From an uncultured Draconibacterium sp. (GTDB lineage Bacteria; Bacteroidota; Bacteroidia; Bacteroidales; Prolixibacteraceae), in contig CAXXTY010000001.1 of the NCBI GenBank assembly GCA_963662825.2, positions 739,884-803,883 on the forward strand: a DNA stretch of 64,000 nucleotides, written 5' to 3'. Shown here in pieces: positions 12,324 through 38,456 of the stretch. A program made the position numbers and the translations under genes. Positions within the stretch are counted from its first letter, which is position 1, and each line of letters opens with the position of its first letter. A model generated the notes under the pieces. It did no database searches. It had not been told where the DNA came from and was given only the letters and a program-made list of their open reading frames with translations.

Positions 12324-13775
12324 ATGATTGAATGGAGAATAGTTTGGGAAATTTTTTCACTGATTTTTTTGCTTACTGCAATTCCGGTGAGTATCATGAT
12401 TATTCTTGAAAAACGTTCGCCGTACAAAACGGCTGCGTGGATTCTGGTGCTAATTCTGGTTCCTGTTTTTGGTGTTATATTTTACCTGATTTTTGGGCAG
12501 GAATACAGAAAACGCAAACTTTTTTCGCGTTCAGGAATAAAAAGCCTCGGTAAAATCAGAAATCTTTCGAACAAACAATTGCGTGAAATCGGGCAAAAAC
12601 ACAAAAATCTGAGCAAGGTAATCCAGGAAAAGGAAAACATTGTTCGTTTGTTGCTGAACAATTCAAATTCGCTGCTTACCACAGGCAACGAGGTTAAAAT
12701 TCTGGAAGGTGGTGTAACTACTTTTGAAGCCATTTTCGAGGCCATTCAAAATGCAAAACATCACATTCATTTGGAATATTACATTTTTTCTGACGACAAA
12801 ATCGGTAACCGGCTGAAAGATTTACTCATTCAAAAAAGCAGCGAGGGTGTTGAGGTTCGTATAATTATCGACGATGTTGGAAGTTGGGGATTAAAGAAAA
12901 AGTTTATCAATCGTTTGAAAGAAAACGGTATAGAGATTTATCCGTTTATGGAAGTTCGTTTTCCGCGACTGACTTCGCAGGTGAATTTCAGAAACCACCG
13001 AAAAATTCTGATTGTAGATGGGATTGTTGGTTTTACCGGCGGAATAAACATTGCCGATCGTTATCTGGAAGGTATCAAAAAAATTGGCCCCTGGCGCGAT
13101 TTGCACATTCAAATTACCGGCGATGCTGTGGCTTGTTTGCAGGTTGTTTTTGCCGCCGACTGGTTTTTTTGCATCAACGAAAATCTAAGTGGCAGGAAAT
13201 ATTTTCCCGCATTTTCCGAAAAACCCGGCAAAGCCATCCAGGTTTCGGCCAGCGGCCCCGACTCCGACTGGGAAAGTATTGCTCAGGCCTTTTTCGCCGC
13301 CATCGCCAACGCTCGCAAAAAAGTGTACATTGTAACACCCTACCTCATGCCGCCGCCCAATATTTTATCGGCTTTAAAAACCGTTGCACTCAGCAACATC
13401 GATGTAAGAATTATTATTCCCCGGAAATCGGACGCGGTAATTCCGCGCTGGAGTTCGTTTTCGTATGTTGGCGAATTGCTCGAAGCCGGTGTGAAAATGT
13501 ATTTTTATGAAGCCGGTTTTATTCACAGCAAATACCTTATTGTGGATGATACTTTTGCAACTGTTGGCACTACTAATCTCGATTTCAGAAGTCTGGAAAC
13601 CAATTTTGAAGTAAACGCCTTTATTTACGACAAAGATTTTGCAACCCAACTGGAAAGAGTATTTATTACCGACCTCGAAAACAGCCGCGAAATACATTTG
13701 GATAAGTGGGAAAAACGAGCATGGCACAAAAAACTCCGCGAATCGGTCGCACACATTGTTAGTCCGATGTTGTAA
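12324..13775 (+). CDS. cls: Cardiolipin synthase
   Basis: Two HKD phospholipase D motifs (NHRKILIVDG and IHSKYLIVDD) after N-terminal TM helices. Start trimmed to MIEWRIVWEIF at 12324. Confidence 0.9.
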   Translation: MIEWRIVWEIFSLIFLLTAIPVSIMIILEKRSPYKTAAWILVLILVPVFGVIFYLIFGQEYRKRKLFSRSGIKSLGKIRNLSNKQLREIGQKHKNLSKVIQEKENIVRLLLNNSNSLLTTGNEVKILEGGVTTFEAIFEAIQNAKHHIHLEYYIFSDDKIGNRLKDLLIQKSSEGVEVRIIIDDVGSWGLKKKFINRLKENGIEIYPFMEVRFPRLTSQVNFRNHRKILIVDGIVGFTGGINIADRYLEGIKKIGPWRDLHIQITGDAVACLQVVFAADWFFCINENLSGRKYFPAFSEKPGKAIQVSASGPDSDWESIAQAFFAAIANARKKVYIVTPYLMPPPNILSALKTVALSNIDVRIIIPRKSDAVIPRWSSFSYVGELLEAGVKMYFYEAGFIHSKYLIVDDTFATVGTTNLDFRSLETNFEVNAFIYDKDFATQLERVFITDLENSREIHLDKWEKRAWHKKLRESVAHIVSPML

Positions 13776-34110: not shown

Positions 34111-35196
34111 ATGAAAAACTCCAACGATAAAATCCTTTGTTTTGATGCACACCTTGACATTTCGATGAATGCCATGGAATGGAACCGCGACCAGCGCTGG
34201 ACTGTGCAGCAAATCCGTGAAAGTGAAAGAGGAATGACCGACAAACCCGATCGCGAACGAAATACGGTTTCGTTTCCGGCGCTTCGTGAAGGTAAAGTCG
34301 GACTGGTAGTGGCAACACAAATCAGCCGGGTAGTAAAACCCGGAAGCCCGATTCAAGGGTGGTTTTCACAAGAACAGGCTTGGTCGCAAACGCAAGGACA
34401 GTTGCAGTGGTACCGCACCATGGAAGAAGCAGGCGAAATGAAACAAATTACTGATAAAAAGTCGCTGGAAGAAAGTTTGAAACTCTGGGAAAACCCCGAT
34501 GAAAAAACTCCTGTTTGTTACTTGCTGAGCCTCGAAGGCGCCGATTCTATTGTTTCGATGGAACATTTGCACCGTGCCTACAATTCCGGATTGCGAGCTA
34601 TTGGACCGGCACATTACGGACCGGGAATTTATGCCAACGGAACCGATTCTTCAGGACGTCTAAACGAAAAAGGCATTGAACTGCTCAAAACCATGGAAAA
34701 GCTGAATATGATTCTGGATGCCACCCACCTGAACGACGACGCATTCTGGCACGCCATGGAAATGTACGACGCACCGGTTTGGGCAAGCCACAACAATTGC
34801 CGGAAATTTGTAAACCACAACCGCCAGTTTTCGGATGAAATGATTCAGGAACTAATTCAGCACAATGCGGTAATCGGAATTGCCCTGGATGCCTGGATGA
34901 TGGTTCCCGGCTGGATTCGCGGTGAATCGACACCAAAATCGCAAAATGTTACTTTGGAAATTATGGCCGACAACATCGACCACGTTTGCCAGTTGGCGGG
35001 AAATTCGTTACATGCCGGTATTGGCAGCGACCTTGACGGCGCATTTGGAACCGAACAGTGTCCGTACGATTTGGACACCATTGCCGACATTCAGAAAGTT
35101 CCGAAAATTCTGGAAAAACGGGGTTACAAAACAGAAGACATCGAAAATATTATGCACGGAAATTTTATCCGTTTTTTGAAGAATTGTCTTCCATAA
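34111..35196 (+). CDS. Membrane (renal-type) dipeptidase, peptidase family M19
   Basis: 361 aa. FDAHLD metal motif, LEGADSI, DATHLND, SHNNCR...HNRQFSDE and GIGSDLDG blocks. Confidence 0.8.
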   Translation: MKNSNDKILCFDAHLDISMNAMEWNRDQRWTVQQIRESERGMTDKPDRERNTVSFPALREGKVGLVVATQISRVVKPGSPIQGWFSQEQAWSQTQGQLQWYRTMEEAGEMKQITDKKSLEESLKLWENPDEKTPVCYLLSLEGADSIVSMEHLHRAYNSGLRAIGPAHYGPGIYANGTDSSGRLNEKGIELLKTMEKLNMILDATHLNDDAFWHAMEMYDAPVWASHNNCRKFVNHNRQFSDEMIQELIQHNAVIGIALDAWMMVPGWIRGESTPKSQNVTLEIMADNIDHVCQLAGNSLHAGIGSDLDGAFGTEQCPYDLDTIADIQKVPKILEKRGYKTEDIENIMHGNFIRFLKNCLP

Positions 35197-35372: not shown

Positions 35373-38300
35373 ATGGAAATTGCGAGCAAATACAATCCGG
35401 CCGAAGTTGAAAACAAATGGTACAAATACTGGACGAAAAACAAGTATTTTCATTCTGAACCCGATGAACGTGAACCGTATACCATTGTTATTCCGCCTCC
35501 GAATGTCACGGGAGTACTGCACATGGGGCACATGCTCAACAATACCATTCAGGATATTCTGGTTCGCCGTGCCCGAATGACGGGTAAAAATGCCTGCTGG
35601 GTTCCGGGAACCGACCACGCATCGATTGCCACCGAAGCCAAAGTGGTAAATAAACTTCGCGACCAGGGAATAGACAAATACGATCTTTCGCGCGAAGAAT
35701 TTCTGAAACATGCCTGGGAATGGACCGACAAACACGGCGGTATTATTCTGGAACAGCTGAAAAAACTTGGCGCTTCCTGCGACTGGGACCGCACTGCATT
35801 TACTATGGACGAAGCACGCAGCGAATCTGTTATCAAAGTCTTTATCGATTTGTTCAACAAAGGATTGATTTACCGCGGTGTTCGTATGGTTAACTGGGAC
35901 CCCGCTGCAAAAACAGCTCTTTCCGACGAAGAAGTGAATTACAAGGAAATGCAGGGAAAACTGTATTACCTGAAATATAAAATAGAGGAAGCCCCCCTTA
36001 ATCCCCCCGAAGGGGGGAAAAAGAATCCCCTGTACCAAACAGCACGTAAATCGGAATATGAATTATTAAAAAAGAATGCCAAAGAATTACGCCATTTTTC
36101 AACTGAAGCTGAAAGTGCATTGTGGGAAATGGTACGTGCAAATAAATTGGGTGAAAAATTCAGAAGACAACATATTATTAATGATATAATTGTTGATTTT
36201 GTATGTCTTCCTGAAAAGCTTGTAATAGAAGTTGATGGGGGTTATCACAAGAATCCTGAAATTCAAAATCTGGATATATTGAAAACTGATATTCTGAACG
36301 AATTAGGATATACAGTAATTCGATTCTCCAACGAAGAGGTATTGGGAAATATCGATTCAGTGATACGATCGATTGAAGATGCGTTAAAAAGCTCCCCCTC
36401 CGGGGGAGTTGAGGGGGCTGAGTATATAACTATCGCAACAACACGTCCCGAAACCATTTTAGGCGACACCGCGGTTTGTGTAAATCCGGCCGATGAACGT
36501 TTTGCACACCTTGTTGGTAAACGTGTGCTGGTTCCGCTCATTAACCGCTCTATTCCTGTAATTGCCGATGATTACGTTGATATGGAATTTGGTACCGGTT
36601 GTTTAAAAATTACTCCGGCACACGATATTAACGACTACGAAATCGGGATGCGCCACAACCTGCCTTCCATCGATATTTTTAACGACAATGGAACACTGAG
36701 CGAAAAAGCCGAAATTTTTATCGGAGAAGACCGTTTTGCGGTTCGCGATAAAATTATTCCCGAACTTGAAAAAGCAGGCAATCTTGCCAAAATCGAAGAT
36801 TACACCAACAAAGTGGGCTTTTCAGAAAGAACCGATGTAATTATCGAACCTAAACTTTCGGCACAGTGGTTCCTGAAAATGGACGAACTGGTAAAACCCG
36901 CGCTGGAAAATGTGATGAACGACACCATCAAATTCCACCCGGCAAAATTCAAAAATATTTACAACCACTGGATGGGCAACATCAAGGACTGGTGCATTAG
37001 TCGCCAGTTATGGTGGGGACACCAGATTCCGGTGTATTATATTGAAGCCCCCCTTAATCCCCCCGAAGGGGGAAGTTGGGGTTTTGTGGTTGCGGAAAAC
37101 GAAGAAGAAGCGCGAAAAATGGTGCTTGCTAAACACCCCTCCCTCGGAGGGGAAGGGGGAGGCTTTACCTTAAAACAGGACGAAGACGCGCTCGATACCT
37201 GGTTTTCGAGCTGGCTGTGGCCTATTTCTGTTTTCGACGGAATCCGTTATCCTGAAAACGACGAAATAAAATATTACTATCCTACTTCGGATTTGGTAAC
37301 TGCGCCCGATATTATTTTCTTTTGGGTAGCCCGGATGATTATTGCCGGTTACGAATACCGTAACGAATTCCCGTATAAAAATGTGTATTTCACCGGAATG
37401 GTTCGTGATGCACAACGCAGGAAAATGTCGAAATCGCTGGGTAATTCGCCTGATCCGCTCGATTTGATTGCCAAATACGGAGCCGACGGCGTTCGCGTGG
37501 GAATGTTACTTTGTTCTCCTGCCGGTGGTGATTTGCTTTTCGATGAAGGGCTGCCACAGCAAGGAGCAGGTTTTGCAACAAAAATATGGAATGCTTTCCG
37601 ACTGGTAAAAAACTGGGAAGTTTCTTCAGAAATTGAACAACCGGAACATTCAAAACTGGCCATCGAATGGTTCAGAAATAAATTAAGTGAAGTTGTTTTC
37701 ACCTTAAATAATCAATTTGATCAGTTCCGTATTTCGGAAGCGTTAATGACTGTTTACACCACAGTTCGCGACGAATTTTCGGGTTGGCTGCTTGAAGTTG
37801 TAAAACCGGCGTACCAACAACCCATTGATGCAAAAACGTATGCTGAAGTTGTTGAACTTTTCGACCAGATGCTGCGGCTGATGCACCCGTTTATGCCGTT
37901 TATTACTGAAGAAATCTGGCAAATGCTGACCGACAGAAAAGAAGGTGAAAGTATTATGATCAGCCAGCTTCCAAAAGCCGAAACATTTGATGCCGATTTA
38001 CTGGCTGCATTTGAAAATGCAAAAGAGGCGATTTCAGGAATTCGTAAAATTCGCACCGACAAAAATATTCCGAACAAAGACACACTTGCTTTAAAAGTTC
38101 AGCAGGGCGACAAAGGTTTTGAACCTCAATTCAACAGTGTTGTACTAAAAATGGCCAATCTTTCGTCGCTCGAAATGGTAAACGAGGAAGTAAAAGGCGC
38201 CTCTTCATTTTTGGTAAAATCAACCAATTTTTATATTCCGCTCGAAGGATTTATTGATGTTGAAGAAGAATTGAAAAAACTTCAGGAAGAACTAATTTAT

Positions 38301-38456
38301 ACACAAGGGTTTCTGGCTTCGGTTATGAAAAAACTGAGCAACGAAAAATTTGTCAGCGGTGCGCCGGCAGCGGTAGTTGATAAAGAACGCGCCAAACAAG
38401 CCGACGCCGAAGCCAAAATAAAAGTATTGGAAGAAAGAATCGCCGGGTTAAAATAG
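35373..38456 (+). CDS. valS: Valine--tRNA ligase carrying three in-frame repeat-element insertions
   Basis: 1027 aa. Class I motifs HMGH and KMSKS, TTRPET editing-domain motif, C-terminal coiled coil. It is about 165 aa longer than expected because of the inserts at 35991-36419, 37047-37082 and about 37134-37163. Confidence 0.95.
35991..36419 (+). mobile_element. 429-bp GC-hairpin-bounded element encoding a DUF559 (Vsr-like PD-(D/E)xK) endonuclease domain, inserted in frame in valS
   Basis: Left end GCCCCCCTTAATCCCCCCGAAGGGGGG. Reverse complement of the right end AGCCCCCTCAACTCCCCCGGAGGGGGAG. The interior is visibly AT-richer and encodes [43 protein letters not shown]...[13 protein letters not shown]. 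At 143 codons exactly, it has no internal stop and no start codon of its own. Confidence 0.75.
37047..37082 (+). repeat. Solo miniature copy of the same GC-rich palindromic element, in frame in valS (encodes [12 protein letters not shown])
   Basis: GAAGCCCCCCTTAATCCCCCCGAAGGGGG (37044-37072) is identical over 29 nt to 35988-36016. It is followed by AAGTTGGGG, which resembles the right-end arm GAGTTGAGGGGG. Confidence 0.7.
37134..37163 (+). repeat. Third GC-rich hairpin repeat in frame in valS (encodes [10 protein letters not shown]), resembling the right end of the element
   Basis: CCCCTCC-CTC-GGAGGGG hairpin followed by AAGGGGGAGGCT. The architecture matches the right end at 36392-36419 (CTCCCCC-TCC-GGGGGAG then TTGAGGGGGCT). 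Confidence 0.6.

Follow-up and report, generated by a model that had tools for sequence, protein, structure and literature searches.

We propose, with good confidence, that two GC-rich palindromes within valS (sites 2 and 3) are separately acquired hairpin modules of a Bacteroidota-wide family, that the modules of this family are the ends of a selfish element carrying a DUF559 nuclease gene, and that sites 2 and 3 contribute residues to the host protein and are swapped between valS alleles.

Four hairpin modules in valS

We analyzed a 64-kb stretch of DNA (the window), in which valS encodes a product that is 88% identical to ValRS from Prolixibacteraceae (by protein similarity search) and that can be aligned to ValRS from T. 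thermophilus (1gax). The features discussed below are:

35373..38456, + strand: valS open reading frame (1027 amino acids), host of all four hairpin modules (from the ORF list; Pfam tRNA-synt_1, Anticodon_1, and Val_tRNA-synt_C)
35990..36017, + strand: left end of the DUF559 element, A-GCCCCCC-TTAAT-[CCCCCC-GAA-GGGGGG], with a 26-nt core in common with site 2
36066..36386, + strand: DUF559 cargo (Vsr-like PD-(D/E)XK nuclease), in frame with valS (Pfam PF04480)
36392..36419, + strand: right end of the DUF559 element, [CTCCCCC-TCC-GGGGGAG]-TTGA-GGGGGCT, an inverted repeat with the left end
37047..37082, + strand: site 2, a complete single-hairpin palindrome without cargo, CCCCCC subfamily, 12 codons
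37083..37133, + strand: native ValRS segment between sites 2 and 3, 17 codons, which aligns with empty alleles
37134..37164, + strand: site 3, a right-end half-module of the CCCCTCC subfamily, with the same architecture as right ends elsewhere

The preliminary description of this DNA counted three members of one repeat family in valS. They do belong to one family, but the number of modules is four, one at each end of the DUF559 element plus sites 2 and 3. The modules occupy a variable insertion between the WWGHxIP and DTWFSS motifs of the ValRS catalytic domain, and sites 2 and 3 are both in frame within the intact 1027-amino-acid ORF (predicted translation). Sequences resembling CCCCCC-N3-GGGGGG, with up to two mismatches, occur 10 times in the window, versus 0.5 expected, and all 10 fall on the four hairpins; the family is thus confined to valS within the 64-kb window. 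The GC content of sites 2 and 3 is 67% and 77%, while the window is 39.6% GC. AlphaFold2, run on the 1027-amino-acid protein with an alignment of 121 sequences, gave a poor model (pLDDT 52.8, pTM 0.40), which hints weakly that residues 559–570 and 588–598 may be coils between a strand, a strand-helix, and a strand.

The sequence GAAGCCCCCCTTAATCCCCCCGAAGGGGG is present at 35988–36016 and again at 37044–37072, and the identity of 29 nt with the left end of the DUF559 element that was reported previously is exact (29/29). The 26-nt core that site 2 has in common with this left end had no matches in 100 shuffles. Site 2 is closed on its right side by its own a' arm, AAGTTGGGGT, and the nested palindrome without cargo, first put at about 36 nt, is 36 nt long (37047–37082, or 12 codons encoding amino acids 559–570). 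As single-stranded DNA, it is predicted to fold with −9.9 kcal/mol (z = −2.1). Relative to empty alleles, which read LPDGT, site 2 swaps 5 native codons for 14 (+9). Some alleles bear a double hairpin at this site (APSNSPEGGELSPSFGGVRGGS), and others a single hairpin.

Site 3 consists of CCCCTCC-CTC-GGAGGGG-AA-GGGGGAGGCT at 37136–37164, with codons at 37134–37163 (amino acids 588–597), and is single-copy in the 64-kb window even if three mismatches are permitted. In unrelated genes (L075, L082, and L100), complete elements have a right end with this architecture, and the left form of this type flanks DUF559 at L083 and L118. Site 3 had been described as copying the architecture of the right end of the DUF559 element in valS. 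It is a right-end half-module, but from the sister CCCCTCC subfamily and not the same one. It replaces a native loop of 10 codons, which reads SGNTNLTGTD in empty alleles (general form SGNxxLTxxD), with 12 codons (+2), and is nearly length-neutral. So, of the original view that sites 2 and 3 are separate, frame-preserving small insertions, the separate origin and the preservation of frame hold up, but site 3 is a replacement of a loop and not a net insertion. In none of the three valS sites is the native loop simply interrupted; it is replaced. The 17 codons between sites 2 and 3 align with empty alleles (FVCAETAEQALKLAKEK) and with T. thermophilus ValRS, and were correctly recognized at the outset as native ValRS.

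We also considered that sites 2 and 3 might be ordinary lineage-specific Pro/Gly loops of ValRS, whose likeness to the DUF559 ends is a coincidence of low complexity. The WWGHxIP–DTWFSS region does vary in length among ValRS proteins, and T. thermophilus has a Cys-rich insertion there. However, non-mobile loops are contradicted by the exact match of 29/29 (0 by chance), by identical modules of 26–29 nt in unrelated genes from many families, by near-identical alleles that differ sharply by presence or absence, and by conservation at the nucleotide and not the amino-acid level. This explanation is almost certainly wrong.

Filled and empty alleles

Among close valS orthologues, sites 2 and 3 are either filled or empty, at exactly the same positions; a comparison of valS alleles from relatives, which the preliminary description had suggested as a check, shows inserts in some and none in other close orthologues. 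There are valS alleles of 875 amino acids without any insert, and the states are patchy across the ValRS tree. Between the near-identical proteins P0054 and P0101, residues 552–599 contain 19 mismatches and 15 gaps, versus 0–4 per 30 amino acids elsewhere. P0024 and P0116 differ by a clean gain of site 2 only. Alleles exchange sites 2 and 3, with the codons between them, in a single cassette of about 50 codons. In Prolixibacteraceae, short-tract recombination or gene conversion would swap filled for empty sites 2 and 3 along with the 17 native codons. None of the 120 orthologues has site 3 filled and site 2 empty, and the two sites might conceivably be linked beyond their physical proximity.

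Could a single composite element have site 2 as its left end and site 3 as its right end, and move as a unit with its own copy of the 17 ValRS codons, as a replacement cassette and not two insertions? In almost all close pairs, the two sites and the intervening residues (with FVCAETAEQALK as one of the two forms) switch together, and the Paludibacteraceae ValRS at L011, which is just 60% identical, bears both modules. At other loci (L075, L082, and L061), complete elements have a left end of the CCCCCC type and a right end of the CCCCTCC type. Also, the predicted fold of 37040–37170 pairs AGCCCCCC with GGGGGAGGCT (−26.8 kcal/mol, z = −3.0). But co-transfer is expected anyway for sites that are just 51 nt apart, and site 2 has its own closing a' arm (AAGTTGGGGT). 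There are alleles with site 2 only on an otherwise empty-type background (P0116 versus its sister P0024; P0097/L005), and at L094 and L121, site 2 is a complete double hairpin (left plus right) while site 3 has a further right module of its own. Synonymous change in the segment between the sites is no different from background (0.54), and the segment has homology to native ValRS, that of T. thermophilus among them. We think that a composite element is quite improbable: site 3 is independent of site 2 in origin.

At the junctions of filled and empty alleles for valS sites 1–3, we see no target-site duplication. Turn codons at the junction (GA[AC]GG or P/D/E-G) fit all three of the sites valS site 1, valS site 2, and the UbiD-like gene.

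Conservation at the DNA level

The fraction of conserved residues with identical codons is 0.80 for site 2 and 0.95 for site 3; it is 0.54 both in the rest of valS and in the 17-codon segment between the sites. This excess holds in orthologues retrieved by protein similarity only. Synonymous sites are saturated (pS 0.62–0.78). At the right end of the DUF559 element, 17 of 17 codon comparisons among four orthologues are identical. Conservation of the Pro/Gly segments as protein but not as DNA, which would have spoken against mobile repeats, is not what we see: the nucleotides are conserved, synonymous sites included. The hairpins use CCC for 8 of 8 prolines and GGG for 7 of 13 glycines, but the window-wide usage of these codons is 26% and 12%, so we rejected codon bias as the cause of the conservation.

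We rejected several other candidates as well. Rfam gave no match at E ≤ 1, which argues against a known RNA family, intron, or riboswitch. The valS product contains no Hint/intein domain in Pfam. An intrinsic terminator within valS was rejected because there is no call on the + strand at site 2 or site 3.

The conservation of the DNA raises the issue of whether the hairpins are kept for a function in the host, for example because a structure in the mRNA or DNA sets the pace of translation or folding at domain borders or because the protein loop has a role, with their mobile origin being secondary. Synonymous conservation is far above that of the neighboring codons, including the linked 17-codon segment, so recent spread alone is insufficient; the choice of codons in the hairpins opposes genomic usage; and the DUF559 cargo is itself under purifying selection (see below). 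However, many close relatives have functional-looking 875-amino-acid alleles with zero modules, and decayed variants are common (HPELKEGGFS, HPSLEKTGFS, and SPSPTLPKGEREKDYG). Furthermore, dozens of proteins unrelated to one another contain the same module, as does intergenic DNA. The lack of an Rfam match and of any + strand call resembling a terminator at sites 2 and 3 also weighs against a host function, which we consider improbable.

A family across the Bacteroidota

To survey the family, we used the exact pattern GCCCCCCTWRRTCCCCCCNNNGGGGG and contigs from one genome per species. At least 119 stretches match, nearly all of them from Bacteroidota and from many families; because the pattern is exact, this census over-samples well-preserved copies. 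The preliminary description's reading of a repeat family that resides in frame is thus extended to many unrelated genes, and further copies, whose absence would have told against it, are abundant across Bacteroidota genomes. The matches listed are from Bacteroidales, Chitinophagales, Sphingobacteriales, Flavobacteriales, and Cytophagales-type and Saprospiraceae-type MAGs, with 3–6 copies apiece in several of these MAGs. We rejected carriage by phage, as matches are present in just 3 of about 2.9 million viral contigs and DUF559 is in none of these.

Among the matches listed, ORFs (delimited from stop to stop; many loci are from MAG contigs) contain 83 of 122 copies, and the remainder includes intergenic DNA. 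The copies within ORFs form at least 41 host-site clusters, including ValRS, MetRS, RibD, UbiD-like proteins, and MetH. Pfam confirmed as hosts MetRS, a class-I aaRS, RibD, a P-type ATPase, MetH, M19 dipeptidase, SpoIIE, a transketolase-like E1 beta, amidohydrolase, and DegT, and the UbiD-like host was also confirmed. The domains of the host resume on both sides of the embedded modules. Of the at least 41 clusters, 30 have the canonical codon phase, versus about 50% expected from the avoidance of stop codons (binomial P = 0.002), and the commonest phase reads APLNPPxGG. Given this reading, the modules would be kept in the mRNA and translated as Pro/Gly loops (APLNPPxGG for the left end and PxxGGxxGG/A for the right), in a codon phase that is open and that would be tolerated in peripheral loops of host proteins.

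The copies begin with AGCCCC at their 5' end, and double hairpins are found at L053, L103, L073, L094, and other loci. (Automatic detection of the right end is crude, and length classes shift by one base if a terminal A or T is counted.) A preference for GAA targets had been suggested, but we reject it: among the matches listed, GAA precedes just 15 of 122 copies. In the flanks of these 122 copies, only base −1 is conserved: it is an A in 87 of them, and it is part of the terminal AG...CT.

Association with DUF559

The cargo of the element in valS matches PF04480 (E = 8e-32, amino acids 232–338 of the valS product) and resembles PDB entry 3hrl (E = 5e-19). Among orthologues, it has pN of 0.12–0.14 versus pS of 0.67–0.78, and it is maintained by purifying selection. 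The element has terminal inverted repeats (AGCCCCCC...GGGGGCT). Among the matches listed, a DUF559 ORF lies within 200 nt downstream of 15 copies, and about 7 more copies flank one in inverted orientation; together, about 18% of copies flank DUF559 and about 80% have no DUF559 nearby. DUF559 is in frame within ValRS, MetRS, amidohydrolase, and DegT, and within fragments resembling IleRS, LeuRS, and a RecG-type helicase. It was the only type of cargo found, and the elements examined have no transposase.

We therefore propose a selfish element that in its full form, a-[b-loop-b']-cargo-[b-loop-b']-a', carries a DUF559 nuclease gene and has the hairpin modules as its terminal inverted repeats. 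Site 2 would be the minimal closed form without cargo, a-[b-loop-b']-a', and site 3 would be a lone right half, [b-loop-b']-a', from the sister subfamily. Copying may be driven by a break or nick that the nuclease makes in cis or in trans, and the short modules may be non-autonomous or decayed derivatives. This role for DUF559 is an inference.

It is possible, but we think unlikely, that sites 2 and 3 are instead the footprints of former full DUF559 elements whose cargo was deleted between the hairpins. At valS site 1, there is a series that suggests such decay: from the full element, to an internal deletion in L005 that leaves the left end and 15 codons of cargo, to a cargo-less double hairpin (L006, P0042, and others), to a single remnant (P0116). 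And site 2 is a double hairpin in some alleles and a single one in others. On the other hand, sites 2 and 3 themselves contain no nuclease ORF (the neighboring large element encodes one), and DUF559 is absent from both sites in the 120 ValRS orthologues and in the valS loci from the DNA scan. Also, with about 80% of copies among the matches listed lacking cargo, in many host genes, propagation of the short forms fits at least as well.

Beyond separate acquisition of sites 2 and 3, we tentatively put forward a broader view, which could well be wrong: the hairpins and DUF559 may together form an undescribed autonomous selfish element, with the stretches in valS being non-autonomous or half forms. 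A gene for a Vsr-like nuclease, with GC-rich double hairpins on either side, would invade protein-coding genes and remain translated within the host protein, and the element would be neither an intron, an intein, nor a transposon. Its codon phase would be fixed because integration is seeded on turn codons (P/D/E-G, GA[AC]GG) that resemble the hairpin tip CCC-GAA-GGG-GG, and selection at the DNA level would keep the hairpins.

To our knowledge, in-frame selfish repeats in bacterial genes have been a textbook curiosity, mainly from Rickettsia, and the DUF559 family still has no assigned function. Our results point to a case much larger and older than that of Rickettsia, with a module that is in essential enzymes and tied to DUF559, and the 26-nt module is nearly invariant across families of Bacteroidota, including gut Prevotella, Bacteroidaceae, and soil Chitinophagaceae. 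If our proposal is correct, it gives DUF559 a biological role, provides a natural catalogue of where dozens of enzymes have loops that tolerate insertions, and accounts for many odd Pro/Gly segments, and possibly some split gene calls, in the annotation of Bacteroidota. It would also be a tractable system for studying how a mobile element keeps to one reading phase.

Comparison with known systems

As with MITEs and REP/REPIN-RAYT systems, short hairpin or inverted-repeat derivatives outnumber the protein-coding partner, and like MITEs, the element has terminal inverted repeats. Unlike MITEs, there is no target-site duplication at valS sites 1–3, and the cargo is a DUF559 nuclease and not a transposase. 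Unlike REP/REPIN-RAYT, the modules are mostly intragenic and in frame instead of extragenic, and they lack the GTAG/CGTC tag.

The homing endonuclease I-Bth0305I (PDB 3r3p) has been grouped with Vsr and DUF559 (PMC3424549). The element in valS resembles the Vsr-like homing endonucleases in belonging to the same superfamily clade, in occupying a precise site in a conserved gene, in being present or absent, and in the co-conversion of its flanks. But the vehicles of I-Bth0305I-type enzymes are group I introns or inteins, or the enzymes are free-standing, while here there is no intron and no intein domain, and the DUF559 ORF is fused in frame to its host via Pro/Gly linkers encoded by the hairpins. 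An intron is also disfavored because RNA splicing would make the frame constraint that we see needless. And unlike homing endonuclease elements, sites 2 and 3 bear no nuclease.

WHO elements of yeasts reportedly replace part of the host's coding sequence when they move. Our element is like these unorthodox homing elements (bioRxiv 10.1101/2020.01.20.913210) in being of homing type, in residing in a housekeeping gene, in being neither an intron nor an intein, and in partly replacing the host coding sequence. WHO elements differ in being eukaryotic and in having another family of nuclease, and they are not known to have hairpin termini or to be translated within the host protein.

Double-hairpin elements (DHEs) were reportedly described by Paquin et al. 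in 2000 from the mitochondria of Allomyces and chytrids. Like DHEs and the GC clusters of yeast mitochondria, the modules are GC-rich (double) hairpins in an AT-rich genome and are polymorphic between close relatives. Both kinds are sometimes in frame in protein genes, adjoin mobile endonuclease ORFs, and spread by gene conversion. GC clusters and DHEs are organellar, while our modules have bacterial chromosomal contexts and unrelated sequences; the associated endonucleases are LAGLIDADG or GIY-YIG there and a Vsr-like DUF559 here. Another difference is that in our element it is the nuclease ORF itself that has the hairpins as inverted termini, and the host's reading frame runs through them.

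The literature that we searched contains no description of this hairpin family or of its DUF559 element, which is a bacterial parallel to the Rickettsia palindromic elements (RPE). RPE are said to have been reported by Ogata et al. in 2000 as palindromic repeats that lie in frame in protein genes, and we know of no protein-coding autonomous form of RPE. The preliminary description had compared the repeats in valS to RPE. This is apt for in-frame repeats in many genes, but no high local copy number like that in Rickettsia is apparent in the window, where the copies are only in valS. Like RPE, the family consists of multi-copy palindromes that can form hairpins (at least 119 stretches, with up to 6 per MAG), that lie in frame in protein genes, including essential ones, and that are predicted to add a peptide at tolerated spots; they are also found in intergenic DNA. 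Unlike RPE, the family is phylum-wide in the Bacteroidota instead of being from Rickettsia, and it is presumably unrelated in sequence. And whereas RPE are 100–150 nt, the modules are about 30–36 nt, or about 60–135 nt as double hairpins; they are very GC-rich in an AT-rich genome, and a subset of them comes with a nuclease ORF.

The hairpin modules of valS

In the product of valS, Pfam recognizes a class-I synthetase domain, an anticodon-binding domain, and the ValRS C-terminal domain, with a DUF559 domain embedded at amino acids 232-338. Within valS, we will call the DUF559 element site 1 and the two cargo-less modules downstream sites 2 and 3:

35373-38456, + strand: valS, an ORF of 1027 amino acids (ORF list)
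37047-37082, + strand: site 2, a 36-nt palindrome of 12 codons (amino acids 559-570), formed by a 29-nt string closed by AAGTTGGGGT
37136-37164, + strand: site 3, CCCCTCC-CTC-GGAGGGG-AA-GGGGGAGGCT, 51 nt beyond site 2

As the preliminary description had it, valS contains related palindromic repeats: we recovered the exact 29-nt copy, the closed 36-nt palindrome, and the hairpin at site 3. The window has exactly two copies of the 29-nt string, GAAGCCCCCCTTAATCCCCCCGAAGGGGG (35988-36016 and 37044-37072; 0 copies expected by chance), and the identity takes in the preceding GAA codon and the GAA loop. Folded as single-stranded DNA, the site 2 palindrome has an energy of -9.9 kcal/mol (z = -2.1). 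The sequence of site 3 is found only once in the window, and its codons (37134-37163) encode 10 residues (amino acids 588-597). G+C content rises from 39.6% across the window to 67% and 77% in the two modules. Matches resembling CCCCCC-N3-GGGGGG number 10 in the 64 kb, versus 0.5 expected, and all of them lie in four hairpins inside valS.

Filled and empty alleles

The nearest ValRS proteins (74-90% identity) are from Prolixibacteraceae (Draconibacterium, Maribellus, Tangfeifania, and Mariniphaga). An alignment of 120 of the closest proteins showed three polymorphic sites, and 875-residue alleles have none of the inserts.

States of the three polymorphic sites in ValRS
Site 1, amino acids about 205-352: empty, a 19-residue stretch; filled, the DUF559 element or cargo-less Pro/Gly remnants; net change variable
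Site 2, amino acids 557-570: empty, YY-LPDGT-FV; filled, an 18-residue stretch; +9 codons
Site 3, amino acids 588-599: empty, SGNTNLTGTD; filled, 12 residues; +2 codons

Both modules had been proposed to be separate small insertions. This holds for site 2, but site 3 gains only 2 codons, so it is a nearly length-neutral replacement, with no net insertion. The segment between them was correctly described as native ValRS, because its 17 residues line up with the empty alleles, and the region can be aligned to ValRS of Thermus thermophilus (1gax), which has a Cys-rich insertion at the corresponding spot, between WWGHQIP and DTWFSS.

The annotation of Draconibacterium halophilum lists the DUF559 cargo of valS as a protein of its own, an "endonuclease domain-containing protein" (P0122, 138 amino acids), and the reading continues in the +1 frame of valS; either the gene is frameshifted or split, or there is an assembly error in the poly-G/C hairpin. 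At site 1 in the valS of locus L005 (10001-12730), an internal deletion has spared the left hairpin and ~15 initial cargo codons and removed the remainder of DUF559 together with the right end, which is a snapshot of element decay.

Conservation of the hairpins as DNA

We compared valS with orthologous genes that were picked by protein similarity only (L001, L003, and L006, filled; L002 and L004, empty; L005, site 2 only). The hairpin codons are nearly invariant, including their third positions, while neighboring codons vary freely. Among these genes, synonymous divergence has reached saturation (pS 0.62-0.78).

Fraction of identical codons at conserved residues
Remainder of valS: 0.54
17-codon segment between sites 2 and 3: 0.54
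Site 2: 0.80
Site 3: 0.95
DUF559 element, right end: 1.00

Thus, the modules are not conserved at the amino-acid level only, which is what would have argued against the preliminary description; conservation is at the nucleotide level. Codon bias is ruled out as the cause: 8/8 prolines inside the hairpins are CCC, versus 26% in the window's long ORFs, and 7/13 glycines are GGG, versus 12%.

Modules as termini of DUF559 elements

In valS, the sequence of the large element is A-GCCCCCC-TTAAT-[CCCCCC-GAA-GGGGGG] ... DUF559 ... [CTCCCCC-TCC-GGGGGAG]-TTGA-GGGGGCT, or, in shorthand, a-[b-loop-b']-cargo-[b-loop-b']-a'. Its cargo is under purifying selection and is similar to an endonuclease-like protein from Neisseria gonorrhoeae (3hrl, E = 5e-19). 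DUF559 has been classed with Vsr and the intron homing endonuclease I-Bth0305I (PMC3424549). DUF559 relatives are mostly free-standing proteins (123-130 amino acids), and several of these have a hairpin-encoded PPxPPxGG peptide at the N-terminus. DUF559 is also found in frame within ValRS, MetRS, an amidohydrolase, and DegT, and in fragments resembling IleRS, LeuRS, and a RecG-type helicase.

Among 122 listed copies of the hairpin, 15 are followed within 200 nt by a DUF559 ORF, and ~7 more flank one in inverted orientation. Cargo-less forms include double hairpins (L053, L103, L073, and a ~90-nt Bacteroidaceae/Alloprevotella type), single closed hairpins such as site 2, and lone halves. Site 3 is a member of a sister subfamily. 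The left form of this subfamily, AGCCTCCCC-AAA-CCCCTCC-N3-GGAGGGG, flanks DUF559 in L083 and L118, and its right form, CCCCTCC-N3-GGAGGGG-NN-GGGGAGGCT, lies in frame within unrelated ORFs of L075, L082, and L100. We conclude that the family's modules are the termini of DUF559-carrying elements.

A phylum-wide family

Scanning one genome per species with the pattern GCCCCCCTWRRTCCCCCCNNNGGGGG gave at least 119 matching stretches. Those listed are nearly all from Bacteroidota, and from many families: carriers include Prevotella, Alloprevotella, Paludibacter, Muribaculaceae, Bacteroidaceae, Chitinophagaceae/Ferruginibacter, Pedobacter, Flavobacteriaceae, Phaeodactylibacter, Marivirga, and Prolixibacteraceae, with up to six copies per MAG among the matches listed. 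The family is almost absent from viral contigs. Exact matches in contigs that were assigned to Solirubrobacterales, Caldilineaceae, and Spirochaetota MAGs (L052, L073, L084) reflect either binning contamination or transfer beyond Bacteroidota.

In the 122 listed copies, the stems are invariant and the 3-nt loop varies (GAA, AAA, TTT, GAG, CAA, and others). Most copies (83/122) lie inside ORFs that extend at least 40 codons to either side. Of these, 53 have the sense phase, read as APLNPPxGG, and 16 have the antisense phase, read as PPxGG(F/L)RG(A/G), the one that a right end has. By clustering the flanking protein sequences, we obtained at least 41 host sites; 30 clusters have the canonical phase, where stop avoidance alone would give about half (P = 0.002). 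Pfam-confirmed hosts include MetRS, another class-I synthetase, RibD, a P-type ATPase, the methyltransferase domain of MetH, M19 dipeptidase, SpoIIE phosphatase, a transketolase-like E1 beta subunit, an amidohydrolase, and a DegT aminotransferase. A UbiD-like decarboxylase is also polymorphic (empty, LVLADEGVxIQDY; filled, LVLTAPLNPPQGGTFEESFxINDY), with decayed intermediates.

Some individual loci are worth describing. The M19 dipeptidase with an in-frame module is from a Ferruginibacter MAG (L046); the gene upstream of valS (34111-35196) appears from its motifs to encode an M19-type membrane dipeptidase, and it has no module. The 950-residue MetRS ORF of L030 shows the same multi-hit pattern as valS, with a DUF559 element and at least three more modules (including VPPVEGFREA and VPPMEGFREA). 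In L071 (4225 region), the left module APLNPPQGGTSDPDDS is duplicated in tandem ahead of DUF559 in MetRS, and L014 (3492 region) has an array of hairpin units in the non-canonical phase s2. In a related MAG (L006), the copy AGCCCCTCCTAACCTCCCCGGGGGGGAGG is intergenic (12750-12766), 14 nt past the valS stop. The UbiD-like ORF of L067 has two more in-frame low-complexity repeats, SAVGSQQSAVGSHQS and SNQQPATSNQQPVTSNQQPATS, beside its module; these may represent another family of intragenic repeats.

Exchange and origin of sites 2 and 3

In a neighbor-joining tree of ValRS that leaves out the insert regions, the filled and empty states are all scattered. Also, near-identical proteins differ only locally. 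For instance, P0054 (filled) and P0101 (empty) have 19 mismatches and 15 gaps within amino acids 552-599, versus 0-4 per 30 residues elsewhere; P0010 and P0117, like P0014 and P0099, show clean presence/absence of the DUF559 element. Thus, sites 2 and 3 and the native codons between them are swapped as one cassette of about 50 codons, most likely by short-tract recombination between alleles.

The two modules nevertheless arose separately: the site 2 palindrome is self-closing; P0116 has gained site 2 only, relative to its sister P0024; L005, too, has site 2 and not site 3; and L094 and L121 have a complete left and right pair at site 2 plus the site 3 module. Several different hairpin variants occupy site 2 among the alleles (including APSDSPATAGG), which suggests that the site is either targeted repeatedly or turns over fast in place. 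In L001, the closest relative, site 1 has another variant at its left end (APSNSPEGE), and site 2 matches the window, so the 29-nt identity may reflect ectopic conversion between sites 1 and 2 within the window's lineage.

Target of insertion

A preference for GAA targets had been suggested, but it does not hold: GAA precedes just 15 of the 122 listed copies. In their flanks, only position -1 is conserved, where 87/122 copies have A, complementary to the terminal T. At all three sites with both states known, the empty allele encodes a turn, [D/E/P]-[D/E]-G.

Empty alleles at the three sites
valS site 1: GAA GGA GAA GAA GGT
valS site 2: CCC GAC GGA (Bacteroidaceae outgroup, CCC GAA GGC GGC)
UbiD-like gene: D-E-G-V

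These turn codons resemble the hairpin tip, CCC GAA GGG GG. This likeness could explain the phase bias, as a lead from three cases.

Relation to known elements

The modules have no match in Rfam, the valS product has no intein domain in Pfam, and neither site 2 nor site 3 gave a terminator-like call on the + strand. We found no transposase with the element, and no target-site duplication is visible at the filled/empty junctions of valS. (An AlphaFold2 model of the valS product was too low in quality for use.) Our literature search, which covered few subscription journals, returned no description of the element; an earlier description is possible.

We conclude that sites 2 and 3 are real, were derived separately, and belong to a family of GC-rich, in-frame hairpins that is found across the phylum. 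We infer, rather than observe, mobilization by the DUF559 nuclease, phase-locked integration of the modules, and the reason for the hairpins' conservation at the DNA level. In their behavior, the valS modules are like the Rickettsia palindromic elements, which the preliminary description had invoked, and like the hairpin elements beside mitochondrial endonuclease genes, yet they belong to a different family from either.
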